Assembly (NCBI GenBank): GCA_963805065.1
Contig: CAWDSS010000010.1
Location: 147,696-211,695 of the forward strand
DNA: 64,000 nt
Reading direction: 5' to 3'
Origin: Candidatus Omnitrophota bacterium
GTDB lineage: Bacteria; Omnitrophota; Gorgyraeia; Gygaellales; Profunditerraquicolaceae
Part shown: positions 1,575 through 20,607 of the stretch, in pieces
Position numbering within the stretch: the first letter of the stretch is position 1
Layout of the letters: each line of letters begins with the position of its first letter
The notes under the pieces: model-generated
What the model saw: only the letters and a program-made list of their open reading frames with translations
Told to the model about the DNA's origin: nothing
Database searches by the model: none
Translations under genes and position numbers: made by a program

Positions 1575-1601
1575 ATCTTTTCTCCTTGGCTCCTATGAAA
1601 T

Positions 1602-1644
1602 AAAAAACCTTTGCCATCTTTCCGGGCAAAGGTTTTGCTTTTTT
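1602..1644. terminator. bidirectional intrinsic terminator hairpin
   Basis: AAAACCTTTGCC-atctttccg-GGCAAAGGTTTT, with an A-run on the left (1598-1607) and a T-run on the right (1637-1644). Confidence 0.6.
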
Positions 1645-1696
1645 AATGTCCAGGTTCCCCCTTCAACTCAGGACCCTACTTTCTAAAATCATTATT

Positions 1697-1725
1697 AATA
1701 TATACCCTTTATAAGGCTTTGTCAA
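1697..1725 (-). promoter_or_regulatory. sigma70-like promoter reading leftwards
   Basis: Minus strand TTGACA (1725-1720), 17 nt, TATATT (1702-1697). It lies immediately after the stop of ORF 1734..2738 and upstream of the 1602-1644 hairpin. Confidence 0.4.
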
Positions 1726-1733
1726 CCTTTTCC

Positions 1734-2738: not shown

Positions 2739-2777
2739 TTTTCCACATCATTCTCGTCTATGATTATTCCATTTTGG

Positions 2778-2805
2778 CATATTCCAATATGTAATATAAC
2801 ATATT
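2778..2805. promoter_or_regulatory. candidate operator made of overlapping CATATT/AATATG half-sites
   Basis: CATATTccAATATGtaatataACATATT lies in the 87-bp divergent region between ORFs 1734..2738 and 2826..3047. Confidence 0.3.
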
Positions 2806-2825
2806 AGTGAGGGAAGTCAAACTAT

Positions 2826-3047
2826 ATGAATAAGACTATTTATTCAGAAGGTCACAAGGTGCTGGTAAATAAGTTGATAAGGGCTCGCAAAGAAAAGGGC
2901 CTTAGGCAGGGAGATGTCGCGAAATTGCTAGGCAGGACACAATCTTATGTCTCAAAAATAGAGGCTGGCCAACGCAGAGTAGACATAATTCAATTGAAAG
3001 AATTCGCGAAAATTTACAAAAAAAATCTTGATTTCTTCGTTAAATAA
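2826..3047 (+). CDS. XRE-family helix-turn-helix regulator (controller-protein size)
   Basis: 73 aa. LRQGDVAKLLGRTQSYVSKIEAGQRRVDI is a canonical XRE/HTH_3 motif. Confidence 0.8.
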   Translation: MNKTIYSEGHKVLVNKLIRARKEKGLRQGDVAKLLGRTQSYVSKIEAGQRRVDIIQLKEFAKIYKKNLDFFVK

Positions 3048-3107
3048 TATGCGTCTTCTATCTACTACAAATAACTCACCGGAAACAACTCTCTGTAAAC
3101 AGGTTAA

Positions 3108-3146
3108 AATAAAAGCGCCGCGGTGGTAAACCGTGGCGCTTTTATC
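3108..3146. terminator. bidirectional terminator between convergent genes
   Basis: AAAAGCGCCGCGG-tggtaaa-CCGTGGCGCTTTT with flanking A and T runs. It sits between the XRE stop (3047) and the terL stop (3162). Confidence 0.6.
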
Positions 3147-3161
3147 AAAATCTACTACTGC

Positions 3162-4844: not shown

Positions 4845-5508
4845 CTTTTGGTTTATCGTCCTTCTTCGTTAGTTTGTTTACTTCCTGATTTATCTCGACT
4901 TGCTCAATCCTTACTTTTAAAGCTCTAATCTTTTTTTCGGTTTCAGGATCAAGGGTACCCGCTTCTTTTGCTGCGCGCTCAATTTCACTTAACATGCTCT
5001 TAGCCTCTGCAATATCTCTTTCGCCATCCCCATCTGCTACGTGATGGAAAATATCTTCTACGATCTCCTGTGGCTTCAGGGGGAGATACCCCAATGTTTG
5101 CATTTTTTCAACCACCTCCTTTAAAACGCGCCAGGCCAGAAACTCCGACTGAGATTTCTCTCCGTTAGTCGCATCTGGACTGCGCGCAAGACGCATTAAA
5201 TGCTTATGATGCACCATAGCCTTCTGGAACATATTTCCTATAATGCATTTGGCCTGATTAATATCAGGGCTTAAGGCGTTTCGCTTCTCTATCTCTTGTA
5301 AATCTCGCCTTACGGTCCTCTCGGTTATCATAAGGATCTGTCCGATCTGCGCCTGCGTGTACCCCTCGCTGCTAAGAAATTCTACACAACGCTGTCTTAT
5401 TTCGTTAGTTAATGTTTTAGGATTTAAAGTACCGTCTTTAATTTGTTGAATCAAAGAAAGAATCGGCTCTTCATCGTCGGGGATTTCTTTTTTATTGTTA
5501 TTGCCCAT
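4816..5508 (-). CDS. putative terminase small subunit / sigma70-region-4-like HTH DNA-binding protein
   Basis: The ORF track extends to 5595, but MGNNNKKEIP (ATG 5508) gives an 11-nt overlap with the upstream gene. The HTH is GYTQAQIGQILMITERTVRRDLQEI. Its position directly upstream of terL supports the call. The acidic/basic C-terminal tail is low complexity. Confidence 0.45.
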   Translation of the reverse strand: MGNNNKKEIPDDEEPILSLIQQIKDGTLNPKTLTNEIRQRCVEFLSSEGYTQAQIGQILMITERTVRRDLQEIEKRNALSPDINQAKCIIGNMFQKAMVHHKHLMRLARSPDATNGEKSQSEFLAWRVLKEVVEKMQTLGYLPLKPQEIVEDIFHHVADGDGERDIAEAKSMLSEIERAAKEAGTLDPETEKKIRALKVRIEQVEINQEVNKLTKKDDKPKDEKEEQDEK

Positions 5509-6781
5509 CGATGACCTCCTTGAGATATTTTTTACGTATGTCTTCTGAAACTTTATCGATGCCTTTATAGGCAATGTACCGACGGACAATCGCATCGCAG
5601 TATTTCGGGTCTATCTCTATCCCAAAACAACGACGATCAATAGACTCCGCTGCAATTAATGTTGACCCGCTGCCCAAACATAGATCCAAAACGATATCGC
5701 CGCGTTCGCTGCTGTTGCGGATAGCGCGTGCCGCGAGTTCACAAGGTTTTTGAGTCGGATGTCGGTATTGGCTCGTCGGGTCTCGTTTAACCTGCCAAAG
5801 ACTGCTTTCGTTGACACCGCCATACCAGCGATGTTTTTCACCTTCCTTCCAACCGTAGAGACAAAACTCAGTTTGTTGATGATAGTCGCCGTAGGAAATT
5901 GCGAAATTCGGTTTTGCCCAAGTCAAAACGCAACCGATATGATAATTAAGATCGGTCAATAGTCGATGCATCGGTGCAAATTGGCAATGACCGTTCCAAA
6001 TATAGAATGAACATCCCGGCTCAAGCACTTTGTCAATATTGGCAAACAGCTTTTTAAGAAACTCTTCGTATTCCTCCTGGCTCAAGTTGTCCGCATAAAT
6101 TCTTTCCCAGTTACGCGAACGTTTAGGGCGAGCGGACTTGGGTCGCGGCCTGTCTCCGCCGAGATATGCGATATTGTAAGGCGGATCCATATTTACGAGC
6201 CTCGCCATTTCATTCCCCATAAGCAGCATTACGTCATCTAATATGGTAGAATCGCCGCAGAGAATACGATGGTTGCCGAGAGTAATAATGTCTCCGCGTT
6301 TGGTTTTCGGCTCTGAGATACTTTCAAGAGCGGATTGGAAATCATAATCATCTCCGTCCTTCTGTTCTCCGTAGCGGTCGAAAATCTGGCCAATCTCTGC
6401 AACATTAAAGCCCGTAACGGTTACGTCAAACTCTGGTATTTTTGATAACTCATCCAAAAGCGCAGCAAGTTTTTCTTTATCCCAACCTCCACCAACTTTG
6501 TTCAAAGCAAGATTAGCTGCTTTCTCTTTCTCCAAAGAGAAATCCACCACAAAAGCTTCGATATGAGTTATCCCTTTGGCCTTAAACACTTTTATCCGCT
6601 GCTCTCCGGAAATCACTTGATGTGTTTTTATATTAACCACGGGCAACCCCAGCAGTCCGAACTCATCAATGCTTCGTTCAATATTCTTGTATTCAGGGTC
6701 ACCCGGTTTTAAGTCAACCCGCGGGTTATAAGGTGAAAATTGATAATCATTGAGACAAATTGTCTGAATTGTGGGTTTCAT
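5498..6781 (-). CDS. ParB-like nuclease domain fused to an N4/N6 DNA methyltransferase
   Basis: 427 aa. The N-terminal part is ParB/Srx-like (YNPRVDL...ISGEQRIKV). The C-terminal MTase motifs are NMDPPYN (IV), HPTQKP and DLCLGSGST (I). A GAGGAGG RBS precedes the ATG. Confidence 0.85.
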   Translation of the reverse strand: MKPTIQTICLNDYQFSPYNPRVDLKPGDPEYKNIERSIDEFGLLGLPVVNIKTHQVISGEQRIKVFKAKGITHIEAFVVDFSLEKEKAANLALNKVGGGWDKEKLAALLDELSKIPEFDVTVTGFNVAEIGQIFDRYGEQKDGDDYDFQSALESISEPKTKRGDIITLGNHRILCGDSTILDDVMLLMGNEMARLVNMDPPYNIAYLGGDRPRPKSARPKRSRNWERIYADNLSQEEYEEFLKKLFANIDKVLEPGCSFYIWNGHCQFAPMHRLLTDLNYHIGCVLTWAKPNFAISYGDYHQQTEFCLYGWKEGEKHRWYGGVNESSLWQVKRDPTSQYRHPTQKPCELAARAIRNSSERGDIVLDLCLGSGSTLIAAESIDRRCFGIEIDPKYCDAIVRRYIAYKGIDKVSEDIRKKYLKEVIDGQ

Positions 6782-6937: not shown

Positions 6938-7045
6938 TATGAATTGCGACTAAAGCCTTATGGGTCTTTTGGTCTATCTCTAACGAAAATCCCTTCCGGC
7001 TTTATGAATTTCTATTATGTCTAAAGAGCAATTGTTTCAGAAATT

Positions 7046-7073
7046 ACTATACACTATTTTCTTAATTTGTCAA
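7046..7073 (-). promoter_or_regulatory. sigma70-like promoter (minus strand)
   Basis: Minus strand TTGACA (7073-7068), 16 nt, TATAGT (7051-7046). It lies 29 nt after the stop of ORF 7102..7767 and ~110 nt upstream of the 6873-6937 terminator. Confidence 0.4.
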
Positions 7074-7101
7074 GATATGTTAAGGTAACAGTATTTTTTG
7101 A

Positions 7102-7767
7102 TTACTGGTGGGAGCCTTGTGTGAATTGACAATAAAGGCAGTCTTGTTTATAGGATGGAATTGAGCCATCATATGTCTTTTTTGCATTTACGAGGGCTTG
7201 CTCTATCCAAGAGCCATCCCCTTCTTGCGGTTCAAGGAAGAAATCAAAGGAAAGTTTACCTTCCACAAAACCACCATTCTTATTTACCTTAGTAAACAGG
7301 AAATACCCAGTCTTGGAAACTTTATATCCATTCTGAATAAGTAGCCACTGGTAAACTTCCATCTGACGCTTGTATTGTGGGTATATTTGGTATTGATTGG
7401 CTCCGGTAGCTTTATAATCTACTACGATTAACTCGCCTGCTGGATTAATCCATACATCATCCACAGCCCCAAAGACAAGAAAGTCTGTAGCCTTATGGTG
7501 AAATTGGATACCCGTAAAGTTATGTCGCCAAGTATCGATTTCCTTACATTTATAGGGAATGACGTTAATGTTATGTTTCTTGATAATGTAATGGGCTGTG
7601 CCGTTTTCGCGGCAGACGTCGAATTCCTGCTTCAGTAGGCCATCGATAGCAGAGTTAATCGTATATGGTGCTGGTGGTGGACGTTTAACGCCTTTCTTCA
7701 TGTCCAGCCAAAAGCAGCGTGGACAATCTAAGAATAACTCGAGTTTTGAACGAGAAAACTTGATCAT
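7102..7767 (-). CDS. Cas4/RecB-family PD-(D/E)XK nuclease with terminal cysteine pairs
   Basis: 221 aa. Motifs are GAVDDVW (D), VVDYKAT (DxK) and QMEVYQWL (QxxxY). Cys pairs sit at both ends (CPRCFW near the N-terminus, CLYCQF near the C-terminus), like the Fe-S staple of Cas4/AddB. Its ATG overlaps the RT stop (ATGA). Confidence 0.75.
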   Translation of the reverse strand: MIKFSRSKLELFLDCPRCFWLDMKKGVKRPPPAPYTINSAIDGLLKQEFDVCRENGTAHYIIKKHNINVIPYKCKEIDTWRHNFTGIQFHHKATDFLVFGAVDDVWINPAGELIVVDYKATGANQYQIYPQYKRQMEVYQWLLIQNGYKVSKTGYFLFTKVNKNGGFVEGKLSFDFFLEPQEGDGSWIEQALVNAKKTYDGSIPSYKQDCLYCQFTQGSHQ

Positions 7768-9581
7768 AATTGTAAGTTTTTAATTCTTTTAATGTGCTCT
7801 TTAATAATTGTGTGTCGGCTATATTTATCTTCAATCCTCTTCAGCAAAGAATTAAGCGATTTCCTTACGTTCCGATCATTATTCAAAGCTACAAACCAAA
7901 GACGCCAGATTTGATCTCCAATAAAAACCGAATCCAGTCCATGGAATTTCTTAATCTGATTAGTTGCATAATTTTTGTCATTAATAACGCACAGAAGAAA
8001 ATTTGCCATTCTTGAAACCGTTACGTTAAGATCTTGCGCAATCTCTCCTAGCATTTTTTTTGTTTTTTCAGGAGTATAAGATAACGGCAATAGCACAAGG
8101 GCGGCTCTTCGTATGTACCGGTGATTATTTTCATTCAGCAAATTTCTGACCTTACCTTCTGCAATTCCTTCATAAGATAGATAAAATAATGTGCCGATTG
8201 CTTGTACCCTTACATACCAATGTCGTTTGGATTTAAAAATTACAGAAAACATATTACGTAAAACTTGCTTGTTTCTTACTTTTAAATTGCGAAAAACAGC
8301 TACTAAATGTGCGGCCTGTAAATTATATAAAAATTTATGCCTGTGAAGATAAAACTCCATAGTTCTTAAAACTGGGGCAGTATTGATAAATGATCTAGAA
8401 TAACTACAAATTGCTCTAGACCTTATTGGGAATCTAATGAAATCACTTTTAAGACGATTTTTTAATAATGGAGTTTGAAGCACTCTCGCAGCGTTATAAG
8501 TCATAAATAACGCGGTTTCTAATTTCTTATCGAATTTCTTTCTTCTATATATTCTTTTGTATTCTTGCCGCAACTTAGATAATTGGGCTTTCCTATTAAC
8601 TCTTGAATTCTTAGAAGCTTCAATGATCTGTTTAATGTTTTCTGCTATTTCGTTATAGATTTCACTGCGCGCCTCTAAAGCAGTAAGAATCTTAGTTTTC
8701 TCAGCGTTCTGATTTAATCCGAGTTCTCGGAGCTTACCGCCCAATCTTAAAATAATTGCTATCGCACGTAATCTGGAAGAACTCAATATATGGATATCAT
8801 CACAGTACCTATACCACTCAATTTTTCCTTTTCTTCTCTCCTTCTCTAAGTAAGAATCTACTATATCTAAGTAATAGTTGCTTAAAATTCCAGAGACATT
8901 AGAGGAACCTTGTGGCAACCCACGATCCTGCCTTACATTGCAAGGATCTCTTAATGACCAACTTCTAAATATTTCTAGTATCATATTGATACCGCTTAAT
9001 TGCTTACCTGCTTTGAGCTTTAATATTTCACCTAGAGTTGAAAGATTAATATCTTCAAAATATGCAGTTATATCGGTCTTGGCTACATATTTATATTTCC
9101 CGCTGTCCAATCCGGTTATGATTTTTTGTATATACTCAGGCCATAAATTATACCAAGGTTCCTCAATTTTTATTTTTTCTCTTTTGTATCTAGGCAATAC
9201 AAAATAACTATGCTCTCTATCGCAAGTATACTGCAATTTTTTATCTTTTTTAAGTCGGTAAGCAGTTACCCCAGGATAAAGCCTTCTATCCAATTTAATA
9301 ATAAAATCTAGTAATAAGCGGTGAATGACCGTGAGGTCTAATATATCTACAATAATCCCTGGCCTAATCGCATATTCACCCTTAGGTAAATCAAAATTCT
9401 CCACTCTTTTTGGTCTATACTCTTTAGACTTGAGATCAGCGATGAGTTCATTTATTGTTTCTTTTAATTTATAGTCATAATCACAATATTTAAATGGATC
9501 TGGGGCAACGCTACGCTCCAAATCAGACACTGCTCTTTGAAAAGCTGCGTACATGTTTTTGTAATCAGATAACCGTGACAT
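7764..9581 (-). CDS. reverse transcriptase with a C-terminal alpha-helical repeat domain (UG/Abi-type, defence-associated architecture)
   Basis: 605 aa. RT motifs are LPKGEYAIRPG (1/2), KTDITAYFEDI (A), RGLPQGSSNVSGILSNYYL (B), YRYCDDIHIL (C) and NAEKTKIL (E). The C-terminal ~250 aa are helical and HEAT-like (HWYVRVQAIGTLFYL, HRYIRRAALVLLPL). There is no maturase X or En domain. Confidence 0.85.
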   Translation of the reverse strand: MSRLSDYKNMYAAFQRAVSDLERSVAPDPFKYCDYDYKLKETINELIADLKSKEYRPKRVENFDLPKGEYAIRPGIIVDILDLTVIHRLLLDFIIKLDRRLYPGVTAYRLKKDKKLQYTCDREHSYFVLPRYKREKIKIEEPWYNLWPEYIQKIITGLDSGKYKYVAKTDITAYFEDINLSTLGEILKLKAGKQLSGINMILEIFRSWSLRDPCNVRQDRGLPQGSSNVSGILSNYYLDIVDSYLEKERRKGKIEWYRYCDDIHILSSSRLRAIAIILRLGGKLRELGLNQNAEKTKILTALEARSEIYNEIAENIKQIIEASKNSRVNRKAQLSKLRQEYKRIYRRKKFDKKLETALFMTYNAARVLQTPLLKNRLKSDFIRFPIRSRAICSYSRSFINTAPVLRTMEFYLHRHKFLYNLQAAHLVAVFRNLKVRNKQVLRNMFSVIFKSKRHWYVRVQAIGTLFYLSYEGIAEGKVRNLLNENNHRYIRRAALVLLPLSYTPEKTKKMLGEIAQDLNVTVSRMANFLLCVINDKNYATNQIKKFHGLDSVFIGDQIWRLWFVALNNDRNVRKSLNSLLKRIEDKYSRHTIIKEHIKRIKNLQL

Positions 9582-9685
9582 AGTTATATCTTCAATAAAT
9601 GAATATTATCCTCAATCCACTTTCTTGCTTGTAGATCGGATGCCACATACATCGTAATGTAATTTTATTCCCAAACAAATATTTT

Positions 9686-10951
9686 CTAACGCAACACTAT
9701 CTTTTGCGTTTTAGCGTCATACTTATAGTTAACAATTCCTCCCGTCAAAATAAGCTCGACTGTTTTTTCAATAACTTCAATAGGAGCTATAAACCATTCG
9801 CGAGGACAATATTCAATACCCGCACTATCTACAATCTTTATATCTAAGCATGACTTCCCGAAGAATTTATGAAGCATGGATTCCATAAGGTTTGGCTTGA
9901 AGTTATAGCATTCATAATACGATACTATATGCACTGGCGCATTAAGGTATGTGTGGTCTTTTGCGGAGTTTTTTACACGTTTTTCAACCGAAGTAGATGA
10001 GAAACCTATCTTGTATAAATTTGCTATGGAGCTAATTTGCGGATTAGTACTTTTAGATTGTATTATATAAATAAACCCGGTCGAGGAGTCGTTTTTATCT
10101 ACATCATGGAGATTTTTTGACTTTTTAGGCTGATAATTCGTTATTCTCTTACCCTGCTTGTTTTTATATAACTCGGCGCTCAAAGATCTAAGAAGCATAT
10201 CCGACTCTAATCCATTTTCAAATATACATTTTAATCTTGCATTCACCTTTCCCTTGGTGGTTTTCCGCTCGCCCTTTTCTGCAACATATAGCATTATTCC
10301 TTTCAAAACATAAAAGCATCCTTTTTCTATTTGTTGTTCTTTTTCAAACTGCTTTAACTGTCTCGTTCCTTCTTGCAAGTTTTTGTGACATTCAATAAAT
10401 AAATGCTCAAATTCGTAAAAATTATCGCATTTCTTTCTCTGCGCCAAATAATCGGGCATATTTGTTTCCTTGGGCACATGCTTAATATTCAATATCTCTT
10501 CCCCACCTTTTTCGAGAATTCCTAAATCATCGCTTTTGAAAACATCATCTATTGTTCTATTAGTTTTGCCTTTATTGTTTTCACCCGAAAGATTCGAAGC
10601 GACATCTGATTTATTAGTTAGTCTCTTATTCTGCAATAGCCCATTTCTATCAAATTTAACTAATTCTTCTATCTTTTCGGGGTTTTGTCTAATGCCTTTT
10701 AGTCGAAAATATAATTTAGCTTCCTGGATATTGTCTTGCCCTGGTTCTCTATGGTGCGCTTCCACAAACTTTTGTATTTCGCCGAATGATTCAATTAATC
10801 TCTGCTTTTCAGATTTAACGGATGATGCCTTAGGTCTGACATTCAATAAACCCATTGCATCATCTTCGAATATCTTGCGGAGTTGTTCGTTCTTATCCAT
10901 TAGCGACCATTTTCCGTTTTTCATTACGTAAATATATAAGCGCCTCTGCAA
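9686..10951 (-). CDS. T5orf172/MUG113 (GIY-YIG-superfamily) domain protein
   Basis: 421 aa. The C-terminal part GFIYIIQSKS...LYKIGFSSTSVEKRVKN...ESMLHKFF...REWFIAPIEVI matches the T5orf172 pattern. The likely true start is 10924 or 10900; the latter gives an ATGGATAA-type 8-nt overlap with the helicase stop. Confidence 0.65.
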   Translation of the reverse strand: MQRRLYIYVMKNGKWSLMDKNEQLRKIFEDDAMGLLNVRPKASSVKSEKQRLIESFGEIQKFVEAHHREPGQDNIQEAKLYFRLKGIRQNPEKIEELVKFDRNGLLQNKRLTNKSDVASNLSGENNKGKTNRTIDDVFKSDDLGILEKGGEEILNIKHVPKETNMPDYLAQRKKCDNFYEFEHLFIECHKNLQEGTRQLKQFEKEQQIEKGCFYVLKGIMLYVAEKGERKTTKGKVNARLKCIFENGLESDMLLRSLSAELYKNKQGKRITNYQPKKSKNLHDVDKNDSSTGFIYIIQSKSTNPQISSIANLYKIGFSSTSVEKRVKNSAKDHTYLNAPVHIVSYYECYNFKPNLMESMLHKFFGKSCLDIKIVDSAGIEYCPREWFIAPIEVIEKTVELILTGGIVNYKYDAKTQKIVLR

Positions 10952-12818
10952 GTCTTTTCTCTAAAGGATCGGAAGAATTCATGTGGGGCTCGCTACTAGT
11001 ATTATTTACAAACGCTTTTATTTTGGGCCACAATATAATTGCTTCATCTAAAGTCATTTGCATTCTATTAAGCTCGATTGTTTCTTGTATAACTTTGAAT
11101 ATTTGTGGCGTTACAGATTTGGAAAGAATTTCAAATGCTTGCTGAAAAGGATTTATACTATCAATTAAATCTATATTTAGCTTGTCTATATCGACAAATT
11201 CTCCGGCCATCTTAATAAATCGCTGGCCTCCAATTTCTTTGATTTCCGATCGTTTAACTACAGAATCAGAAACAAGATGCTGCCTAACGACCTCGACCTC
11301 TTCCGTTGATAAATCGGGGTATTTCCTTTGGATTATTTTTGGAGTTAGCATTTTATTGATAACTTCTGGATCCATGATACCAGAAAGCGCCCTCACCAGA
11401 TCTTCGTCCTGCAAAAGACTGGCTTTAAGGTCATTTATATCTGATTCGAGAATTTCTTTTACCTTTGCCGTTGTGGGCTCTTTTAGCCCTTCAATCTTTA
11501 TTACGCCGGGCTCAGATTTATCACTTGCATTTTTTTTAGTTTTGAACTTAAAATTTGGCGCTATAACTTGTTCCATTAACAAAGAACAGGTTATGGCTTT
11601 TAACATATTATTTACAGAAATTCTTACGACATCATCGCTAGCATCTGGTTGGGCAATAAGATTTGTAAATTGTGTATGTGTTTTGTTATAACTATCTCTT
11701 GTGCATCGGCCGATTATTTGAATAATTTCCGTTAACGACCCTCTGTATCCCACGGTTAAAGCATGTTCGCAATAAGGCCAATCAAAGCCTTCTTTTGCCA
11801 TACCCAAAGCAATGATCAAATCCATATCATCTACATCTTTAATCTTTCGTAAATAATTGACAATTTTATCTCGTTCTTTCTGTTCATCATAAACAAGGTC
11901 TGCAATCTTAATAATTTTATTATCTTTTTTACGTTTTACGAATATAACTCCTGTGTGTTTATCTTGATGAATAACATCGCCTATTGTATCTAGTATCGTA
12001 TCTACTTCTTTATGCTTATCTTTTGTCGATTCTCCAGCATTAACATTGGGAATATGTATAATGGTCTTCTTATTCGTATCAAGAATCTCGCCAATAGCGG
12101 ACGTATATCTACCTTGATAGAAATGATACCCGATGCCTAAAGATTTTAAATAAGTATATCCGTTCAGCTGTTCATAGTAATTATAGGTTACTTTGGTAAA
12201 TTTACATTCGTCTTCTGGCAATAAAATAGGAATGCAATCACCTCTAAAATATGATCCTGTCATGGCTACAATATGTGCCTTTGATTTTCTAAGAACTTCC
12301 CTAAGCAATTCTCCTAATTGACTACTGATATCTGCCGAAACATGATGAAATTCATCTATCGCAATCAATGTCTTATCAAAATCTCCCTCGGCCAATCCCT
12401 CAAAAGCAAAACGTAAAGTCGCATGGGTACATATCAATATTTTATCGGAACCTTTCATAAAACGGTGGAACGCTTTAACTTTACCCGGTTCACCACCAGG
12501 CGTACAAAGATTGTCTTTAGGTTTTGGGTCCCAGTCAGCAAAAAAGCCAGTTGATTTCAAATTAGTGTTTTCAAATGAAGCGCCGATTGATCGCTCCGGA
12601 ACCGCAACAATTACTTTCTTAAGACCTTGATTGGCTAGTTTATCTAAACCAATAAACATCAGCGCCCTAGACTTACCTGATGCTGGCGGAGCCTTAATAA
12701 TCAAATACTGGGAATTGCGTGCTTTAAAAGCGCGCTCCTGCATTTCTCTCATGCCGTATTTGTTAGTTTTGGTACTCTTTCCACTTCTTTCGTATTCAGC
12801 TCTTACTATGTCTGGCAT
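10893..12818 (-). CDS. SF2 DEAD/DEAH-type (ResIII-like) helicase
   Basis: 641 aa. Motifs are I KAPPASGKSRA, Ia VAVPERSIG, II AIDEFHHV, III MTGSYFRGD and VI QIIGRCTRD. No nuclease motif is visible. Its start overlaps the upstream MTase by 23 nt. Confidence 0.85.
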   Translation of the reverse strand: MPDIVRAEYERSGKSTKTNKYGMREMQERAFKARNSQYLIIKAPPASGKSRALMFIGLDKLANQGLKKVIVAVPERSIGASFENTNLKSTGFFADWDPKPKDNLCTPGGEPGKVKAFHRFMKGSDKILICTHATLRFAFEGLAEGDFDKTLIAIDEFHHVSADISSQLGELLREVLRKSKAHIVAMTGSYFRGDCIPILLPEDECKFTKVTYNYYEQLNGYTYLKSLGIGYHFYQGRYTSAIGEILDTNKKTIIHIPNVNAGESTKDKHKEVDTILDTIGDVIHQDKHTGVIFVKRKKDNKIIKIADLVYDEQKERDKIVNYLRKIKDVDDMDLIIALGMAKEGFDWPYCEHALTVGYRGSLTEIIQIIGRCTRDSYNKTHTQFTNLIAQPDASDDVVRISVNNMLKAITCSLLMEQVIAPNFKFKTKKNASDKSEPGVIKIEGLKEPTTAKVKEILESDINDLKASLLQDEDLVRALSGIMDPEVINKMLTPKIIQRKYPDLSTEEVEVVRQHLVSDSVVKRSEIKEIGGQRFIKMAGEFVDIDKLNIDLIDSINPFQQAFEILSKSVTPQIFKVIQETIELNRMQMTLDEAIILWPKIKAFVNNTSSEPHMNSSDPLEKRLAEALIYLRNEKRKMVANG

Positions 12819-15474
12819 GTTGGCTCCGTTTTAAATTCTCCATTTCTTCATATAACATAAACAAGTGTTGTAAACGATCATTATCTGATTCAAACGGTTT
12901 ATCTTGATATAACGAGTCTATTTCTAAATCAAGTTTGCGATGAGCCACCGAAAGACTTTGCGGCATTTTGAATGGATCATAAAGTTGAGCCATGGTTTTC
13001 TCAGAGTGTAACTGTCTTTGTTCAACTATTTTAAAAACAAGCCTTTCGATGCACTCTTTTTTCTCCTTAGAAATATCAGGCATGGGGAAGGTGTTATATC
13101 CTAAAGCCGATGAATAACGAATGCGCGTTTCAAGACTTCCGCATACAGCGCGGATCCAAATCATATGCATCTTAGAGGCAATGATTCCAAATAACCAGGT
13201 TTCCGCTTCGTAAATAGCAAAAGCTAAGTTAGTTATAATTGTAGAGCTATCTACAAAACCTACTGGCAAATATTCTCTTCGCTCTGAAGAAACGGAAGGT
13301 ATAATCAAGGACTGATATTTCGTAATATTCGTCTCCCTAAATTGATGTGGCCTTTTTGCTAAATCGTGCGCGGCGCTATCACTACTACTTAGTCGCATTT
13401 TTTTGACAGAATCAACTCGTAACTTAATAGGATTTATTGCAAGAGCGTCTTTCTGATCTTGATCCAATATCCACAAACACCATCTTTCGATATCATTAAT
13501 GAACTCATCGGATCCCATAAGTCTCTTAATAAACTTAGCTGCGGAAGGATATTGTTCTAAAAGAACGTTTTTCTCTTCTGTGGTTAATATTAAATTCCCC
13601 CCGTCATATGGCATGTTACCTTTTGGCATTAAAGGTAGATTTGATATTGGGGTTGATCTCTTATGGACAATAATGTTGCTTGTAGCGGTTAGGTATGGGC
13701 TTATATTATTTACTTGGTGCGCCAATCCATTAATATAAAGTTTTTTTGTACGCTTCTCTCCGGTTTTCTGCATTCCAATAATAATCACAGTAACTCCAGT
13801 ATTTTCAGTTGCATTGCTTGCCCACTTAAATGAAGTATACGCAAAGCTTATTTCTACTTTTTGTTTTAATAAAATGGGCCAAAGTAACCCAACTTGTTCA
13901 CCTTGACAAATTGAATTTGTTGAACCAAAGGCAAATTTAGAAATAGTCGATTTAATATAACGACTACCAAGATAGAACCAGCAAGCTGCGTAGTCTAAGT
14001 TTTTAGTATTTTCAAATCCGTTAAAAACAAACGCTACGTCGGATTTTTGTTCTTTTGATTGTTTGCGAGCGCCCTTATATGGTGGGTTTCCTACCACATA
14101 GACTTCGTCATTTTCTTTTTTAGGGCATATTTTACTCCAATCTAAGCGCGTTGCATTCCCGCTTACTATATTGGCAGTTTCTTTGATTGGGATATGTTTA
14201 ACCAAACCTTCGAACTCGTTCAAATATTCGACATCCATTTGATATTCAGCTAGCCATAACGACAACATTACCATTTCAAACGCGAGAGGGTCTTGTTCAA
14301 TACCATAGAATTGTGAAAGCCTTATCTGAGAAGAATGTGGTTTTTTAAACTTCCCCAGTTCCACTAATTTTCTGATTATTTTAATTTCGAGTTTACGTAA
14401 TTCTTTATAGGCAACTATCAAAAAATTTCCAGACCCACATGCCGGATCAAACACTTTTATTTTTATTATTCGACCAAGCAAAGAAATCAAACGTCTCTGA
14501 CTCCCTTTAGATCTATTTAATTCGTCATAAAGGCCATCTAAAAATAATGGTTTAATCATCTTTAATATATTTTTAACGTTCGTATAGTATATTCCTATAT
14601 AGCCCCTGTTTTTTGAAGAGACAGCAATTTGAATCATTGAGCCGAAAATATCCGGATTTATGGTTGCCCAATTCATCTGACCGATTTCAATTATTATTTG
14701 CCTCGCTTTTCTAGAAAGAAGAGGGGTTATTTTTGATTTCTCGAATAAGCCTCCATTAACATATGGAAATTTTCTTAAATATTCTGGGCAGCCTTTTCTT
14801 TCTTTTTTATTTAAAACATTGAATACTTTTTCGAGATAGGAATTAAGGTCGTTGCCATCCTGTTGCGTATGCGAAATGACAGAATTAACAAATAAACCTT
14901 TATTATATAATCCGACATCTTCGGCGAAAAAACAAAAAAGAAGTCGTGACAAAAAAATATTAAGATTATGCTGCTGGTCAAAGGTATTTAAGGTATTAGT
15001 TTTTCTTAACTCATCGACTAGCCTAGAAATACATTCCGTAGCTCGAACATCCACTGGACTCTCATCTTTATAGGTTGCTTTTTCAAATCCAGCTAGCGGT
15101 AAGAAAAAATCGCAATATGCTCCTAAATTTTTAATATCGATCTCTAATATGTCATTGTTTTTCGTATCGGCTGCCAAGAGCTTTTTAAAGTTAGTTATGA
15201 TAATAAATCTCGGCTTATATTTAGCGCATATACAATTCTTTTGTACCTCAGACATAGCTTGATGGATATCTTTTCCATATATAGACTTAAAAAATAATTT
15301 CTTTTTCAGAACAACCTCTCCGGAATTTTTTGAAATATTAGAACCTCCATCCTGCAATCTTACAATAGAAGCTTTTGGGTAACCATAAGCCGATAGTAAG
15401 TCATAAATAAAAGATTTCTCGGAGATAGTCTTTGTAATATTTAAAAGGTTGTCTTCGATTTGATTTATATTCAT
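12796..15474 (-). CDS. MmeI-family (type IIL/IIG-like) N6-adenine DNA methyltransferase with no recognisable nuclease catalytic triad
   Basis: 892 aa. Family-typical blocks are LLFCFFAED, FPYVNGGLFE, INPDIFGSMIQ, YYTNVKNILKMIKPLFLD, FDPACGSGNFL (motif I), GNPPYKG (motif IV), STNSICQGEQVGLLWP, RWCLWI, LETRIRYSSALGYNTFP and LYDPFKMP. The N-terminal region has ..VVLKKKLFFKS.. where a D...ExK would be expected. Confidence 0.85.
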   Translation of the reverse strand: MNINQIEDNLLNITKTISEKSFIYDLLSAYGYPKASIVRLQDGGSNISKNSGEVVLKKKLFFKSIYGKDIHQAMSEVQKNCICAKYKPRFIIITNFKKLLAADTKNNDILEIDIKNLGAYCDFFLPLAGFEKATYKDESPVDVRATECISRLVDELRKTNTLNTFDQQHNLNIFLSRLLFCFFAEDVGLYNKGLFVNSVISHTQQDGNDLNSYLEKVFNVLNKKERKGCPEYLRKFPYVNGGLFEKSKITPLLSRKARQIIIEIGQMNWATINPDIFGSMIQIAVSSKNRGYIGIYYTNVKNILKMIKPLFLDGLYDELNRSKGSQRRLISLLGRIIKIKVFDPACGSGNFLIVAYKELRKLEIKIIRKLVELGKFKKPHSSQIRLSQFYGIEQDPLAFEMVMLSLWLAEYQMDVEYLNEFEGLVKHIPIKETANIVSGNATRLDWSKICPKKENDEVYVVGNPPYKGARKQSKEQKSDVAFVFNGFENTKNLDYAACWFYLGSRYIKSTISKFAFGSTNSICQGEQVGLLWPILLKQKVEISFAYTSFKWASNATENTGVTVIIIGMQKTGEKRTKKLYINGLAHQVNNISPYLTATSNIIVHKRSTPISNLPLMPKGNMPYDGGNLILTTEEKNVLLEQYPSAAKFIKRLMGSDEFINDIERWCLWILDQDQKDALAINPIKLRVDSVKKMRLSSSDSAAHDLAKRPHQFRETNITKYQSLIIPSVSSERREYLPVGFVDSSTIITNLAFAIYEAETWLFGIIASKMHMIWIRAVCGSLETRIRYSSALGYNTFPMPDISKEKKECIERLVFKIVEQRQLHSEKTMAQLYDPFKMPQSLSVAHRKLDLEIDSLYQDKPFESDNDRLQHLFMLYEEMENLKRSQHARHSKS

Positions 15475-15504
15475 TGTGCTCGCTTAATCGACCCCCGGGT
15501 CATA

Positions 15505-16416
15505 TTAAAGGCGCTTTAATTTCTTTTGATATTCGCGTATAGTTTTTGCAACATATTCGGCTAATTTAACAGGTACGGCATTGCCAATTATCTGTTCTAA
15601 AGAAGTTTTTGTTCCTTTGAATTTGAATAAAGCTGGAAAGGTTTGAATATGTCCTCTCTCAATCGTTGTTAGCGCCCTTACCTTTGAAGAAATAGCTACT
15701 ACGTCTCCCGGATGTTTTTTGTAAGCTTTCGGAATCGGCCGATTCACGCCACGTATTGTAGCGCTTGGCTCATGAATACTAAAAACGGCTCTTCTTTTAT
15801 AGCTTCTTGGATGCACATAATAGTACTCTGTTCCTAATAAATCTCCTAGATAATCATGAATGGTCATTTGTCTATCTGATTTATTTTTGTCGAGATACTG
15901 TTTTAGAAATTGATCTTTTGAGCCCAGGTGCCCAATCATAAAAAAACGCCTCCGCGCCTGAGGAACGCCGCAATAACTTGCGTCGAGTATATCCGTAGTC
16001 AAGCCATATCCAACGCTTTTTAATATCTGAGATGCTTTTTTTAGAACCTTACTTTTATCTATGGTATAAACGTTTTCCATCACAAACCATTCGGGCTTAG
16101 AGATAGCTACAATTTTAGCAAATGCTATCGTTAGATTCGCCCTACCTGACCTTTCATTTCGTTTTCCTGCAATAGAGAAGTCCTGACATGGCGGGCCACC
16201 GATTATAATATTAGGTTTCAACGAACACACGAATTCTATACTTTTATCTTTGCTCAGGTCTAAATTGTAAATAGGATGATTAAAGTTATTCTTATAAACG
16301 TCAATAGCAGGACCCCAGTTATCGAATGCAGCCAATATTTTAAACCCGGCATTTTGAAAACCTAGTGACATGCCACCGCAACCAGAAAACAAATCAACTG
16401 TACTTAAGTTCTGCAT
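15505..16416 (-). CDS. DNA (cytosine-5)-methyltransferase, copy 1
   Basis: 303 aa. Motifs are I DLFSGCGGMSLGF, IV GGPPCQDFS, VI ENV, VIII QARRRFF and X GNAVPV. Confidence 0.9.
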   Translation of the reverse strand: MQNLSTVDLFSGCGGMSLGFQNAGFKILAAFDNWGPAIDVYKNNFNHPIYNLDLSKDKSIEFVCSLKPNIIIGGPPCQDFSIAGKRNERSGRANLTIAFAKIVAISKPEWFVMENVYTIDKSKVLKKASQILKSVGYGLTTDILDASYCGVPQARRRFFMIGHLGSKDQFLKQYLDKNKSDRQMTIHDYLGDLLGTEYYYVHPRSYKRRAVFSIHEPSATIRGVNRPIPKAYKKHPGDVVAISSKVRALTTIERGHIQTFPALFKFKGTKTSLEQIIGNAVPVKLAEYVAKTIREYQKKLKRL

Positions 16417-16421
16417 TTTCG

Positions 16422-17351
16422 TTACTTTTCCCTATCTTTTATTAAATCATTGCTGTATTCAATTATGCTCTTAGCAACAAATTCTGCGAGTTTCACAGGT
16501 ACAGCATTGCCTATAATTTGATTTAAAGCCGTTTTAGTGCCTTCAAATTTGTATGTTCTAGGGAAGGTTTGAATATAACTTCTTTCTCTAACCGTTAAGA
16601 TTCGTAATTTATTGGTAATTGCTACGGGATCCCCAGGATGACCTTTATACCCTTTTGGAATGGGGCGATCTACTCCGCGTATCGTTGGGCTCGGTTGATG
16701 AATACTGAAAATGGCTCTCCTCCCATAACTCGTTGGGATTCTAAAATAATGCTTTAGTCTTAAAGAATCTCCCAAATAATCATAAATGGTCATTTGTTTA
16801 GATAATTTATTCTTATCAAAATACGGTTTAAGAAAATTATCCTTTGAGCCTAAATGACCAACCATAAACAAACGTTTTCTTATCTGAGGAACGCCGCAGT
16901 AGCTAGCATCGAGAATATCTGTAGTTAAACCATATCCGGTTTCTTTAAATAATCGATATATTTTATGAATTAAGTTACTTTTTGTAATACGGTCTACGTT
17001 CTCCATAACAAACCAGTGGGGTTTAGAAGCAACTACGATCTTCGCAAACGCTATAGTTAAAGCAGCTCTTCCGAGTTTTTCATTGCGGTGTCCAGCGATG
17101 GAAAAGTCCTGGCAGGGAGGACCGCCGATAATAACGTCAGACTTTATAGAACGTATGATCTCCGCGCTTTCTTTGACACTTAAATCTAAATCATAGATAG
17201 GATGGCTGAAATTATCTTTATATACTTGAATAGCGGGCTTCCAATTATCGAATGCGGCTATTATTTTGAATCCGGCGTTCTGAAACCCTAGAGACATTCC
17301 ACCGCACCCAGCAAATAAATCAACGACTGAATATTTTTTCGTTTTCTGCAT
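16422..17351 (-). CDS. DNA (cytosine-5)-methyltransferase, copy 2 (paralog of copy 1)
   Basis: 309 aa. Motifs are DLFAGCGGMSLGF, GGPPCQDFS, ENV, QIRKRLF and GNAVPV. It is roughly two-thirds identical to copy 1 by eye and separated from it by 5 nt. Confidence 0.9.
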   Translation of the reverse strand: MQKTKKYSVVDLFAGCGGMSLGFQNAGFKIIAAFDNWKPAIQVYKDNFSHPIYDLDLSVKESAEIIRSIKSDVIIGGPPCQDFSIAGHRNEKLGRAALTIAFAKIVVASKPHWFVMENVDRITKSNLIHKIYRLFKETGYGLTTDILDASYCGVPQIRKRLFMVGHLGSKDNFLKPYFDKNKLSKQMTIYDYLGDSLRLKHYFRIPTSYGRRAIFSIHQPSPTIRGVDRPIPKGYKGHPGDPVAITNKLRILTVRERSYIQTFPRTYKFEGTKTALNQIIGNAVPVKLAEFVAKSIIEYSNDLIKDREK

Positions 17352-17385
17352 AACCGTATCCTTTCTTTTCGGCTTTGAGAATATT

Positions 17386-17844
17386 TTAGATTAAGCGAGC
17401 TTTTGTTATCTTGTTATACATATTTTCAACCTTAATAGCACAATTTTTGGAATTTTTGATCATCTCGAAATCCCAAAACCGAATTATTTTCCACCCTTCT
17501 CTCTTTAATGACATATTCACCTGCTTATCTCTTTCAATATTTTTCTTTATTTTATTAACCCAATAATGCTTCCTTCTTTTAAAAGAATGAATTTTAGTAG
17601 ACATGTTTTTATAACCATGCCAGAAAGATGAATCGCAAAAAACTGCTAATTTATGTTTCGACCAAGAGAAATCTGGTGTTCCAAGTATATTTTTTTTGTT
17701 TTTCCTATAGCCACGTAACCCAACTTTACATAATGCGGATGCCATTAATCTTTCTATTTCAGTACCCGATGACTTTATCCGCGACATAGTATACGAGACC
17801 ACTTCTCTAGGTCTTTGCCCTTTATTAACAGTTGTATTTTTCAT
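17386..17844 (-). CDS. vsr: very short patch repair endonuclease
   Basis: 152 aa. MSRIKSSGTEIERL...LGTPDFSW..HKLAVFCDSSFWHGY matches the Vsr pattern. It is adjacent to the C5 methylases. Confidence 0.85.
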   Translation of the reverse strand: MKNTTVNKGQRPREVVSYTMSRIKSSGTEIERLMASALCKVGLRGYRKNKKNILGTPDFSWSKHKLAVFCDSSFWHGYKNMSTKIHSFKRRKHYWVNKIKKNIERDKQVNMSLKREGWKIIRFWDFEMIKNSKNCAIKVENMYNKITKARLI

Positions 17845-18022
17845 AAACCTTATTAAAATTATTATTGTGATTCTTAGACCATGCCTCTATCTCGTCCTTG
17901 CGGAACCGCCATTGTCCACCAGCCTTAAAAGATGGTATCTTTCCTTCTCTGGCAAGACGCCGTACAGTAAATGAATGCAGTTTAAGATATTTCGCTAACT
18001 CTTCTACAGTAAAGGTTTCCAT
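17825..18022 (-). CDS. excisionase/MerR-type HTH DNA-binding protein
   Basis: METFTVEELAKYLKLHSFTVRRLAREGKIPSFKAGGQWRFRKDEIEAW is the HTH_17 excisionase-family pattern. The track start 18043 was moved to Met at 18022. Its 3' end overlaps the vsr start by 20 nt. Confidence 0.65.
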   Translation of the reverse strand: METFTVEELAKYLKLHSFTVRRLAREGKIPSFKAGGQWRFRKDEIEAWSKNHNNNFNKVYEKYNC

Positions 18023-18063
18023 GGGTCCCCTCTTATATAACAAAATGTAGCAACTTGTAGTTG

Positions 18064-18092
18064 ATTATACTGCTTCCCTATGCCTTTAACAA
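18064..18092 (-). promoter_or_regulatory. candidate promoter for the leftward 11-kb gene array
   Basis: Minus strand TTGTTA (18092-18087), 17 nt, TATAAT (18069-18064). It lies in the divergent region between the HTH gene and the DUF2924 gene. Confidence 0.35.
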
Positions 18093-18166
18093 TAAAAAAA
18101 TACCTCTCTTATTACCTTGCTATATGGCGATTTATATGCCTATATTGTACTGAGGAAACCAGAGTT

Positions 18167-18622
18167 ATGAAAGAAGCTATATCTGCCAAAATCGCCAAGT
18201 TGCAGAGCGCCTCGTTTAAGGAGCTGAATAAGACATATAAAGAGCTCTTTGGCAAGGCTGAAACTGCCAGCCACAAGACCTATCTATTCCGTAGGATCGC
18301 TTATAGACTGCAGGAGCTCGAATATGGCGGTTTGTCGCAAAAGGCAAAAGATAACCTAAAAGCGCTGATTGCCAAATACGATCCTATCAATAACGCTGCC
18401 TTTAGGCCTGCGCCACCGCGGCTAAACGCATCTAATTCTAAAGACAGACGCCTGCCTATACCGGGTACCATGATCAATAAGGAATACAAAGGCTCGCGCT
18501 ACCAGGTTAAAGTCTTGGAGAACGGCTTTGAATATAAGGGCAAAATTTACACTTCTCTCTCGGCAATCGCTAAGGAGATTACCGGAGCGCATTGGAACGG
18601 ATACTTATTCTTTAGCCTATGA
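18167..18622 (+). CDS. DUF2924-family protein (usual partner of large serine recombinases)
   Basis: MKEAISAKIAKLQSASFKELNKTYKELFGK...YLFRRIAYRLQELEYGGLS...YKGKIYTSLSAIAKEITGAHWNGYLFF. A GAGGAA RBS precedes ATG 18167 (the track start 18080 is rejected). Its stop overlaps the recombinase start. Confidence 0.7.
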   Translation: MKEAISAKIAKLQSASFKELNKTYKELFGKAETASHKTYLFRRIAYRLQELEYGGLSQKAKDNLKALIAKYDPINNAAFRPAPPRLNASNSKDRRLPIPGTMINKEYKGSRYQVKVLENGFEYKGKIYTSLSAIAKEITGAHWNGYLFFSL

Positions 18623-20220
18623 AAAATGATAAAGAAATAAAACAAGTTTTATGTGCTATCTACACGCGCGTCTCGACCTCTGAAGGATTAGAGCAAGCAT
18701 TTACTTCTTTGGATAACCAACGCGAATCGGCAGAAAGTTACATCCTAAGCCAAAAATCAGAAGGCTGGGTCGCTTCTCCTGAACGTTACGATGACGGAGG
18801 CTACACAGGCGCAAATACCGAGCGCCCTGCCCTGCAAAAACTCATCTCCGATATCAAAGAAGGCAAAATAAACTGCGTAGTAGTTTATAAGGTCGATAGA
18901 TTGTCGAGATCGTTGCTTGATTTTAGCCAACTGCTTGAATTCTTTGACCAGAGCAATGTAACATTTGTCTCGGTTACGCAGCATTTTAACACCAATACCT
19001 CAATGGGGCGCCTTACCCTTAACATCCTCCTCTCCTTCGCCCAGTTTGAACGCGAAATCATCAGCGAGCGTACGCGCGATAAGATGGGTGCTGCCAAAAG
19101 GAAAGGCAAATGGATTGGCGGTAAGCCACCTTTAGGCTATGACCTAGATAAAATAAATCATAAGCTCATAATTAATCCTAAAGAAGCCAAAATTGTAAAA
19201 GAAATCTTTGATCTTTACCTTGAAAAACGTTCGCTTCTTTCGGCCACAATGGCCCTAAATGAAAAGGGATATAAAACTAAGCTTTATACTACGCTACAAG
19301 GCAAAAAAAACGGCGGTATTAGCTTAAAAAGCACGAATGTACAACTAACATTGAAGAATCCATTCTATATCGGCAAGGTAAGCTATCATGGAGAGCTTTA
19401 TCAAGGCGAACAGGAACGGATCATATCTGATGAAATCTTCCAAAAAGCTCAAGCAATACTAGCAGATAACCGCGGGGAACGCAAGATTGCAGGTACTACC
19501 AAGAATATCGGCTTATTAAGCAGCCTCTTGCGCTGTAAGGCCTGCAATTGCTCGATGTACTACGCCTACAGTATGAAAGGTAAATACAAATACTACTATT
19601 ACCTCTGTATGAACGCACAGAAACGCGGCTACAAGAACTGCCCGACGCGACTTGTTAACGCACAAACAATCGAAAATAAACTCCTTGAGTGTATAAGAAA
19701 GTTTACGCCTGATACAAGCTTACAAGGCGACGCATGGAGCGCCCTTACGCTTCAAGATCAAATCAAGCTACTTAAGTCGGTCGTAAGTCAGATAAACTAT
19801 GACGCCCACGAGGGGCTTCTTGAGATCATTCTTCATAACGATAAAAGCTGCAAATTCAGTCTAAAGCTCGAAGAGTTAAAGCATATACCGCCTCACAAAA
19901 AGGATATTGAGGTTACCAAAGAACCTCTTATCCGACAAAATCTTATATTCGCTCATCAGATTGCCAATATTATGAAAGAAAAAGATTGCAGTCTGCACCA
20001 AATATCGAAATGGATTGGTATAGCGCATCCCAGGCTCTGCCAAATCGCAAGCATGATCAACGTCTCTCCTAAGATTCAGGAAGAAATACTCTTTTCTCAA
20101 GACAAGCGCCTGTATCGAATACCTGAATATAGGCTCCGCGACATCCTCTCCAGAACAGATTGGGACAAACAGCAAGAAATCTGGAACGATCTCCTAAAAA
20201 CCTCAGATAAACAAGCCTAA
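18619..20220 (+). CDS. large serine recombinase (integrase)
   Basis: 533 aa. The resolvase catalytic domain is present (CAIYTRVSTSEG, YKVDRLSRS), followed by a recombinase domain and a zinc ribbon (CKACNCSMYY...CMNAQKRGYKNC). Confidence 0.9.
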   Translation: MKNDKEIKQVLCAIYTRVSTSEGLEQAFTSLDNQRESAESYILSQKSEGWVASPERYDDGGYTGANTERPALQKLISDIKEGKINCVVVYKVDRLSRSLLDFSQLLEFFDQSNVTFVSVTQHFNTNTSMGRLTLNILLSFAQFEREIISERTRDKMGAAKRKGKWIGGKPPLGYDLDKINHKLIINPKEAKIVKEIFDLYLEKRSLLSATMALNEKGYKTKLYTTLQGKKNGGISLKSTNVQLTLKNPFYIGKVSYHGELYQGEQERIISDEIFQKAQAILADNRGERKIAGTTKNIGLLSSLLRCKACNCSMYYAYSMKGKYKYYYYLCMNAQKRGYKNCPTRLVNAQTIENKLLECIRKFTPDTSLQGDAWSALTLQDQIKLLKSVVSQINYDAHEGLLEIILHNDKSCKFSLKLEELKHIPPHKKDIEVTKEPLIRQNLIFAHQIANIMKEKDCSLHQISKWIGIAHPRLCQIASMINVSPKIQEEILFSQDKRLYRIPEYRLRDILSRTDWDKQQEIWNDLLKTSDKQA

Positions 20221-20529: not shown

Positions 20530-20607
20530 TGGGGTGGCTAACGGGAATCGAACCCGCAACCTTTAGAGCCACAGTCTAACGCTCTAACCAATTGAGCTAT
20601 AGCCACC
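20530..20607 (-). tRNA. tRNA-His (GTG)
   Basis: Hand-folded as G(-1)-GTGGCTA..GCTCAATTGGTTAGAGC..TTAGA-CTGTGGC-TCTAA..GCGGGTTCGATTCCCGT-TAGCCAC-C-CCA. The extra 5' G and C73 are typical of tRNA-His. CCA is encoded. Confidence 0.9.

Follow-up and report, generated by a model that had tools for sequence, protein, structure and literature searches.

A defence-type gene array in an Omnitrophota mobile element is probably made of exchangeable cassettes and contains a five-gene variant of the YeeABC triad

In this study, we analysed a 64,000-nucleotide (nt) stretch of DNA from a Candidatus Omnitrophota bacterium (contig CAWDSS010000010.1, positions 147,696 to 211,695; the window), in which nine open reading frames (ORFs) on the minus strand form a compact array. 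In gene order, profile searches assigned them to a helix-turn-helix (HTH) protein, a Vsr repair endonuclease, two 5-methylcytosine (m5C) DNA methyltransferases, an MmeI-family methyltransferase, a helicase, a YeeC-type presumed nuclease, a reverse transcriptase (RT) and a PD-(D/E)XK nuclease. An earlier note on this DNA had proposed that the eight defence-type genes form one super-operon of interdependent parts. Judged by its gene content and its relatives, the array is a modular defence island containing a five-gene variant of a known system, the DnmA/YeeA-YeeB-YeeC triad. It is probably the cargo of a mobile element, composed of at least three separately inherited cassettes which carry no recognisable promoter of their own and are served by a single one.

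Results

DNA homology ends at the cassette borders

The array was compared with related loci in other assemblies. Locus L149, with a helicase 92% identical to that of the window, shares the flanking DUF2924 gene and the five-gene set of the m5C pair plus the triad; its lead HTH gene at the corresponding position is not homologous to that of the window, no Vsr gene is present, and no RT gene follows. DNA homology between L149 and the window covers exactly 9687-17368, at 80% identity. The other end of the array was found in L148, in which a TnsA-like gene, the RT gene, the nuclease gene and a gene for a 1114-amino-acid (aa) helicase-nuclease are followed by those for a ParB-N6/N4 DNA methyltransferase (ParB-methylase), TerS and TerL; homology to the window here covers 7124-9588, at 81% DNA identity. 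Cassette homology with the related elements ended 7-17 nt upstream of the first start codon of the respective cassette. Since DNA homology breaks at the cassette borders, the three arms of the array, i.e., m5C modification with repair, the methylase-helicase-nuclease set and the RT-nuclease pair, are not one obligate system, and since the cargo varies between L148, L149 and the window, the array can be described as at least three exchangeable cassettes.

Helicase homologues were found in at least 592 species genomes and on 231 plasmids, and the 80 best of the genomic loci were examined for their neighbours. In 74 of these 80, the other array genes of the window were all missing. For the seven genes compared with diverged relatives, the ratios of nonsynonymous to synonymous substitution (dN/dS) were 0.03-0.12. 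No attC-like repeats were present at the junctions 9582-9685, 17352-17385 and 7040-7101, and the recombinase of the element is of the serine type, so that an integron-like cassette array was rejected.

The MmeI-like protein, helicase and YeeC-type protein match a known triad

Residues 66-882 of the MmeI-family protein align to residues 84-906 of MmeI (PDB 5HR4; E = 2.5e-177), all five MmeI Pfam domains are present, and both motif I (DPACGSGNF) and motif IV (NPPY) are intact. In contrast to MmeI and the Type IIL/IIG enzymes, the protein has no N-terminal PD-ExK segment: the part of MmeI with the catalytic residues D70/E80/K82 gave no alignment, and no D...ExK motif was found in the window's protein. 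The family consensus across this N-terminal segment reads E..K+K++F and is about half-conserved. A bifunctional MmeI (Type IIL) restriction enzyme was rejected because the PD-ExK motif is missing, and any cleavage must for the same reason come from the separate helicase and nuclease. The PADLOC model REase_MTase_IIG matched the protein with 955 bits; its label, which denotes a stand-alone Type IIG enzyme, is misleading for the MmeI-like proteins of the triad.

On the basis of matching domain architecture and published descriptions, the set is assigned to the DnmA/YeeA-YeeB-YeeC triad. Morgan et al. (2009, PMC2731913) described a second group of MmeI homologues which lack the endonuclease motif and "invariably" have a YeeB-like DEAD helicase and a YeeC-like GIY-YIG-type protein as neighbours, and speculated that they form a Type I-like three-subunit restriction system. 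YeeA of Bacillus subtilis is DnmA, the N6-methyladenine (m6A) methylase of GACGAG (PMC9973331), and yeeAB conferred resistance against one clade of phages in Vibrio crassostreae (bioRxiv 10.1101/2021.05.05.442762). The "m6A methylase-helicase-nuclease set" of the earlier note is this triad, with the amendment that its methylase is an MmeI-family specificity subunit too and not merely an m6A methylase.

The triad was constant across the examined loci. The YeeC gene followed the helicase gene in all 80 loci wherever the contig continued, and an MmeI-like gene lay upstream of the helicase gene in all 80 wherever the contig reached. Between these two genes, a RhuM-family gene was inserted in 11 of the 80 loci (e.g., L002:8991-9998) and a Schlafen AlbA_2/HATPase_c_4 gene in 9; L021:2210-3919 is a further example of an inserted gene. 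Insertions of RhuM and Schlafen/AlbA_2-like genes are also common in Type I restriction-modification loci. The helicases are 60-73% identical across bacterial phyla, and the dN/dS of the window's helicase against that of L149 was 0.028.

The window's triad resembles those of B. subtilis, V. crassostreae and the Morgan group in gene order, tight spacing and location in a low-GC island beside recombinase genes. It differs from them in the two m5C methylase genes directly upstream, an addition shared by no fewer than eight distinct loci besides the window, and in the Vsr gene, which joins them on that side in a single case. With Type I and Type ISP systems the triad shares the combination of a sequence-reading methylase, an ATP-dependent superfamily 2 (SF2) motor and a nuclease, as well as the frequent insertion of unrelated genes; it differs in having other subunits, a GIY-YIG-like nuclease fold and no HsdS/HsdR homologues, and modification of one strand is expected of the MmeI family. 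By analogy with the family, the triad would place m6A on one strand of an asymmetric site and carry out ATP-dependent restriction.

Membership in the MADS systems was rejected. The MAD1 model gave 60.5 bits with the HTH protein, below its cutoff of 80, the mad2 match was weak (E = 1.1e-17 vs 1e-287 for the IIG model), and there were no other mad genes.

A tandem m5C methylase pair is linked to the triad in distant loci

Besides the window, no fewer than eight distinct loci have the m5C pair immediately before the MmeI-like gene, with the gene order unchanged and the junctions close or overlapping. These are L068 (Bacillus sp.), L069 (Clostridia), L072 (Anaerovirgula), L077 (Clostridium sartagoforme), L079 (Bacteroides), L149, L151-154 (uncultured Eubacterium, indexed in 47 blocks of the assembly collection) and L155 (Neobacillus), where the cassette lies inside a tyrosine-integrase/Prim-Pol element. 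Five of the 80 helicase loci have the pair. In neighbour-joining trees of the helicase, YeeC and MmeI-like proteins, five of the loci with the pair form one clade, and the window and L149 group apart from them, as a lineage placed among systems that lack the pair. In the methylase tree, the position-2 enzymes of both lineages fall into one clade that consists of cassette-borne copies and three database sequences lacking context; single methylases such as P0191, encoded beside a HindVP-type endonuclease, fall outside it. Between the window and L149, the five genes showed similar synonymous divergence (dS 1.0-1.5, near saturation) and strong purifying selection (dN/dS 0.03-0.12; 0.075 for the position-1 m5C methylase). 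The shared gene order, the methylase clades, the similar dS and the low dN/dS together mark the five-gene unit as old, conserved and mobile as a block. No description of this m5C-linked variant was found in the literature covered by a non-exhaustive search.

The genes in front of and behind this unit are less constant. A Vsr gene follows YeeC in L079 and is absent from the L149 cassette, a distribution by which Vsr is an optional module. An HTH_17 gene stands in front in L010, and comparison with L149 makes the window's HTH gene an exchangeable lead gene and probably a regulator.

Two explanations of the link between the m5C pair and the triad were compared. In the first, which we hold only tentatively, the pair are obligatory subunits of a YeeABC sub-family, a three-methyltransferase system in which m5C supplements the one-strand m6A mark; if true, this would address the problem of self-protection after replication that MmeI-type one-strand modification poses. 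In the second, which appears somewhat less likely still, the pair (with Vsr) are orphan methylases that serve the element itself, by shielding it in a new host from Type II restriction of the HindVP type or by epigenetic regulation, and are linked to yeeABC by descent only. The methylases are of the HindV family, 55-70% identical to sequences annotated M.HindV or lying beside an RE_HindVP gene and share 65-70% identity with single methylases whose partner is a HindVP-type endonuclease, and their target-recognition region is as conserved as the catalytic core. The neighbouring MmeI-like subunits are only 38-49% identical between the cassette lineages, so the two specificities do not obviously co-vary, and most yeeABC loci do without the pair; these observations favour orphan methylases. 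Against them stands the fact that the pair keeps its order, tight spacing and purifying selection across different element backbones (the serine-recombinase element, the tyrosine-integrase/Prim-Pol element and gut Clostridia contigs) and in two helicase lineages. Unlike HindV-type Type II systems, the array has no HindVP-type endonuclease, and two paralogous methylases in tandem are joined to yeeABC.

Motif IV of the MmeI-like proteins also differs among loci with the pair. It reads NPSY in four members of the m5C-linked clade (L069, L072, L077 and L079), and L068, L149 and the window have retained NPPY; some members of the NPSY clade have a degenerate motif I. NPSY may mean a weakened adenine methylase where cytosine methylases are present, a hint of functional compensation that speaks against purely orphan methylases, and in this clade m5C marks may replace the m6A mark.

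The RT-nuclease pair occurs apart from the triad in other loci

The best profile for the RT was UG21 (E = 1.7e-77), followed by UG19 (1.6e-52), and the YCDD active site is invariant among its homologues. Its AlphaFold model (predicted local distance difference test score, pLDDT, 84; predicted template modelling score, pTM, 0.84) has an RT core followed by an all-helical repeat half, with residues ~300-605 modelled as helical throughout and pLDDT mostly above 85. The best structural matches of the model were DRT6, DRT4, AbiK, Abi-P2 and AbiA, with which the protein shares YCDD and the helical-repeat C-terminal half; PF13646 is present in some RT homologues. Profile and model together identify the RT as a UG21-like class-1 UG/Abi enzyme. 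In the available part of Mestre et al. (2022, PMC9226505), the defence prediction for UG21 is "inconclusive" and no nuclease partner is named. The RT of the window differs from UG21 in being coupled to a Cas4-like nuclease, a pairing confined to this sub-lineage.

The partner matched PDDEXK_1 (E = 4.7e-11); Cas4 models reached 28.7 bits against a cutoff of 65. It has a VVDYK core and the cysteines C15-x2-C18 ... C210-x2-C213. In Cas4 the cysteines follow a 1+3 pattern, from which these two CxxC pairs differ. Homologues of the nuclease were absent from phages, and the one on a plasmid had an uninformative context.

In the searches made, the RT family was small (44 proteins and 66 metagenome loci), with no relatives in viral contigs. 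The RT-nuclease pair occurred only in the close relatives L148 (89% identity) and L082 (77%), the latter having an unrelated 154-aa ORF, the pair and then a ParB-methylase gene. RT homologues with 57% identity or less had no nuclease homologue next to them, their neighbours being a glycosidase, an integrase and uncharacterised proteins. The flanks of the pair were not conserved in L148 or L082, giving no sign of an RT-associated non-coding RNA. At L090:6670-13483, an RT homologue (51%) follows a Type ISP-like methylase/specificity protein and precedes a Cas4/DUF2779 protein. Here the RT family has a PD-(D/E)XK-type nuclease as its neighbour for a second time, one not homologous to that of the window.

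These data bear directly on the possibility that all eight defence genes form one interdependent super-system in which methylation protects the host from both nuclease arms. The tight co-directional packing, the single recognisable promoter and the position of the methylase genes upstream of the nuclease genes would suit it, as would the recurrence of the whole 14-kb arrangement in a second assembly (L001). L001 is, however, 100% identical over these 14 kb and hence the same element rather than independent evidence. None of the 80 helicase loci had an RT homologue nearby, distant RT homologues lack the nuclease, the genes preceding the pair in L148 and L082 are unrelated, and the homology breakpoints coincide with the cassette borders, all of which make such a super-system very unlikely. 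Of the association of three arms suggested earlier, the link between the m5C pair and the triad, which travel together, survived, and the part concerning the RT arm and Vsr, which travel separately, failed; in other words, a comparison of co-travelling sub-blocks found independence for the latter two and not for the m5C pair. The comparative data thus support a functionally independent RT arm.

Gene layout, promoters and terminator

The features of the array and its flanks are listed in Table 1. Each of the nine ORFs is intact and retains its catalytic motifs, and the strand, domains, junction lengths and base composition that the earlier note had read from the sequence were confirmed.

Table 1 Positions of the array genes, control elements and flanking operons in the window.
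Feature	Position	Strand	Remarks
DUF2924 protein and large serine recombinase	18164-20220	+	divergent from the array
Predicted promoter TTGTTA-17-TATAAT, sigma-70-type	18092-18064	-	10/12 match; ahead of the HTH gene
HTH_17 excisionase-family DNA-binding protein	18022-17825	-	65 aa; TIGR01764, 57 bits
Vsr very-short-patch repair endonuclease	17844-17386	-	TIGR00632, 110.9 bits vs cutoff 97.85
m5C DNA methyltransferase, position 1 of tandem pair	17351-16422	-	HindV-like; PCQ and ENV motifs
m5C DNA methyltransferase, position 2 of tandem pair	16416-15505	-	69% identical to position 1
MmeI-family DnmA/YeeA-type adenine methyltransferase and specificity subunit	15474-12796	-	892 aa; five MmeI domains
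SF2 DEAD/DEAH helicase, YeeB-type	12818-10893	-	profile match
T5orf172/MUG113 protein, YeeC-type, presumed nuclease	10900-9686	-	C-terminal GIY-YIG-related domain
Spacer between five-gene and RT-nuclease cassettes	9685-9582	-	104 nt
Reverse transcriptase, class-1 UG/Abi	9581-7764	-	UG21 best model; YCDD active site
Cas4-like PD-(D/E)XK nuclease	7767-7102	-	CxxC...CxxC cysteines
Predicted promoter TTGACA-16-TATAGT	7073-7046	-	11/12, best match in the region; after the last stop codon
Intrinsic terminator	6938-6873	-	hairpin 6938-6879 plus U8
ParB-N6/N4 DNA methyltransferase, TerS-like HTH protein, terminase large subunit (TerL)	3162-6781	-

The HTH gene starts with ATG at 18022, with AAGAGGGG just before the start codon, and the T5orf172 protein has 404 aa counted from the ATG at 10900, the start called in L001. 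In gene order the junctions measure -20, +34, +5, +30, -23, -8, +104 and -4 nt, that is, overlaps or gaps of 5-34 nt plus one long gap. The overlaps are those of the HTH gene with the Vsr start (20 nt), of the MmeI-family methylase gene with the helicase gene (23 nt), of the T5orf172 start with the helicase stop (8 nt) and, as an ATGA that indicates translational coupling, of the RT gene with the nuclease gene. In the long gap, neither a terminator nor a stable fold (z = +0.76) was present, and no promoter match reached 9/12. The operon-like packing described before was borne out. The array has a GC content of 35.8%, compared with 42.9% for the recombinase genes, 44.2% from the ParB-methylase gene to TerL and 41.3% for the rest of the window. 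The minus strand also holds 48 of the 54 other genes of the window (89%), and nine in a row would be expected with P ~0.35; the shared direction of the array genes is real and for this reason uninformative.

The TTGTTA-17-TATAAT promoter reported earlier is present; it sits in the divergent control region of 140 nt (18023-18163) that the array has in common with the DUF2924/large serine recombinase operon. The claim that it is the only convincing promoter did not hold, since the stronger TTGACA-16-TATAGT site after the last stop codon had been overlooked. In total, 38 promoter-like sites were seen against 42.6 ± 5.9 in shuffled sequences, which is no enrichment. The internal minus-strand matches in the array all scored 9/12, at noise level, and the scan can therefore neither show nor exclude internal promoters.

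The strong terminator reported near 6937-6873 was confirmed as a hairpin with 18-nt arms (94% complementary) and a U-tract; a simple terminator scan missed it because its loop has 24 nt. The 181-nt stretch that holds the hairpin folds at -52.9 kcal/mol (z = -4.9). As the TTGACA-16-TATAGT promoter, which probably drives the ParB-methylase/TerS/TerL operon, is located downstream of the last stop codon but ahead of the terminator, the latter may belong to the leader of that operon. This structured leader of ~100 nt ends in the terminator just upstream of the three genes, and promoter, leader and terminator (7073-6873) look like a regulated leader of the operon. The segment resembles an attenuator or antitermination target. 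Its sole Rfam match, the 23S-methyl motif, was below threshold (23.7 bits vs a gathering score of 50) and is probably a mere hairpin resemblance. The terminator would also end read-through coming from the array.

Because the cassettes carry no conserved DNA upstream, they probably depend on transcription from further upstream, and co-transcription from one promoter is plausible. A full-length transcript of 11 kb starting at the promoter ahead of the HTH gene seems slightly more likely than not.

Element context

The DUF2924 gene beside the array probably starts at M29 (18164). A tRNA-His gene at 20530-20606, 310 nt beyond the recombinase gene, may mark the integration site. On the other side, the ParB-methylase/TerS/TerL trio of the window also follows the RT-nuclease pair in L148, and the ParB-methylase gene does so in L082. 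No portal or capsid genes were found after TerL, either in window positions 1-3161 or in L150:10587-16890, which extends beyond the left end; an intact prophage thus finds no support. The genes after TerL encode an Xre-type HTH protein, two uncharacterised proteins, an HD-domain protein, SurE, DUF4238 and AIPR, followed by two more uncharacterised genes; the DUF4238 and AIPR genes are defence-like and are found past the left edge of the window. Carrying these additional defence-type genes, the element resembles a prophage remnant or a satellite-like island. Phage and plasmid records contained no megablast match to the 12-kb block. Elsewhere in the window, Rfam identified a tmRNA gene at 29264-29674 (158 bits) which ARAGORN did not report, and ARAGORN found four tRNA genes.

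Discussion

The remaining alternative, that the array is an inactive relic in which only the methylases act, as orphan epigenetic enzymes, has a precedent in the B. subtilis dnmA-yeeB-yeeC locus (PMC9973331) and in the truncated look of the element after TerL, and is highly improbable given nine intact ORFs with catalytic motifs, the low dN/dS of seven genes and helicases conserved across phyla.

Several observations weigh against the cassette reading, in which separately inherited units share one promoter. The B. subtilis locus gave neither restriction nor phage defence (PMC9973331), so a defence role of the triad is not general. The PD-(D/E)XK nuclease is not exclusively a partner of the RT, as a 48%-identical homologue without an RT lies 8 nt after YeeC in L007:13050-13814, from a Chlamydiae metagenome-assembled genome. 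The closest single relatives of the m5C methylases belong to ordinary Type II systems with a HindVP-type endonuclease, which the array lacks, and we infer the role of the m5C pair from linkage alone. Internal promoters may be hidden in the AT-rich coding DNA. The co-occurrence counts describe the 80 best helicase loci, and the lineages come from neighbour-joining trees with dS near saturation.

In the cassette reading, the backbone of the element would be the DUF2924 and large serine recombinase genes on one side and the ParB-methylase/TerS/TerL genes on the other. Cassette 1 would be the exchangeable HTH regulator gene, coupled here to Vsr; cassette 2 the five-gene restriction-modification-like unit; and cassette 3 an independent abortive-infection-type module of the UG21-like RT with its coupled nuclease. 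One sigma-A-type promoter would drive the HTH gene, and read-through would drive the cassettes, which follow one another head to tail. The MmeI-like subunit would read an asymmetric site and methylate its adenine, marking self DNA, and, much as Type I and Type ISP enzymes do, would direct the ATP-driven helicase and the nuclease to DNA that lacks the mark. The m5C pair, as a long-standing partner, would add a second self-mark, and Vsr would repair the T:G mismatches that arise from m5C deamination. These enzymatic roles are those expected from the respective protein families. With the methylase genes nearest to the promoter, expression of modification would precede that of restriction. The RT-nuclease pair would be a distal passenger, with read-through stopping at the terminator at 6873.

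The triad is among the most widespread and most conserved bacterial methylase-helicase-nuclease clusters. Its experimental record conflicts, with no defence in B. subtilis versus defence in Vibrio. The five-gene form, with two dedicated cytosine methylases, offers a handle on how triad systems mark self DNA. Automatic annotation will label the product of the MmeI-like gene as a Type IIG enzyme acting alone, which is misleading. With its coupled nuclease, the UG21-like RT lends itself to testing whether this UG/Abi group acts in defence. The locus as a whole suggests how a single hotspot in a family of serine-recombinase/terminase elements can stack and exchange defence cassettes that lack promoters.

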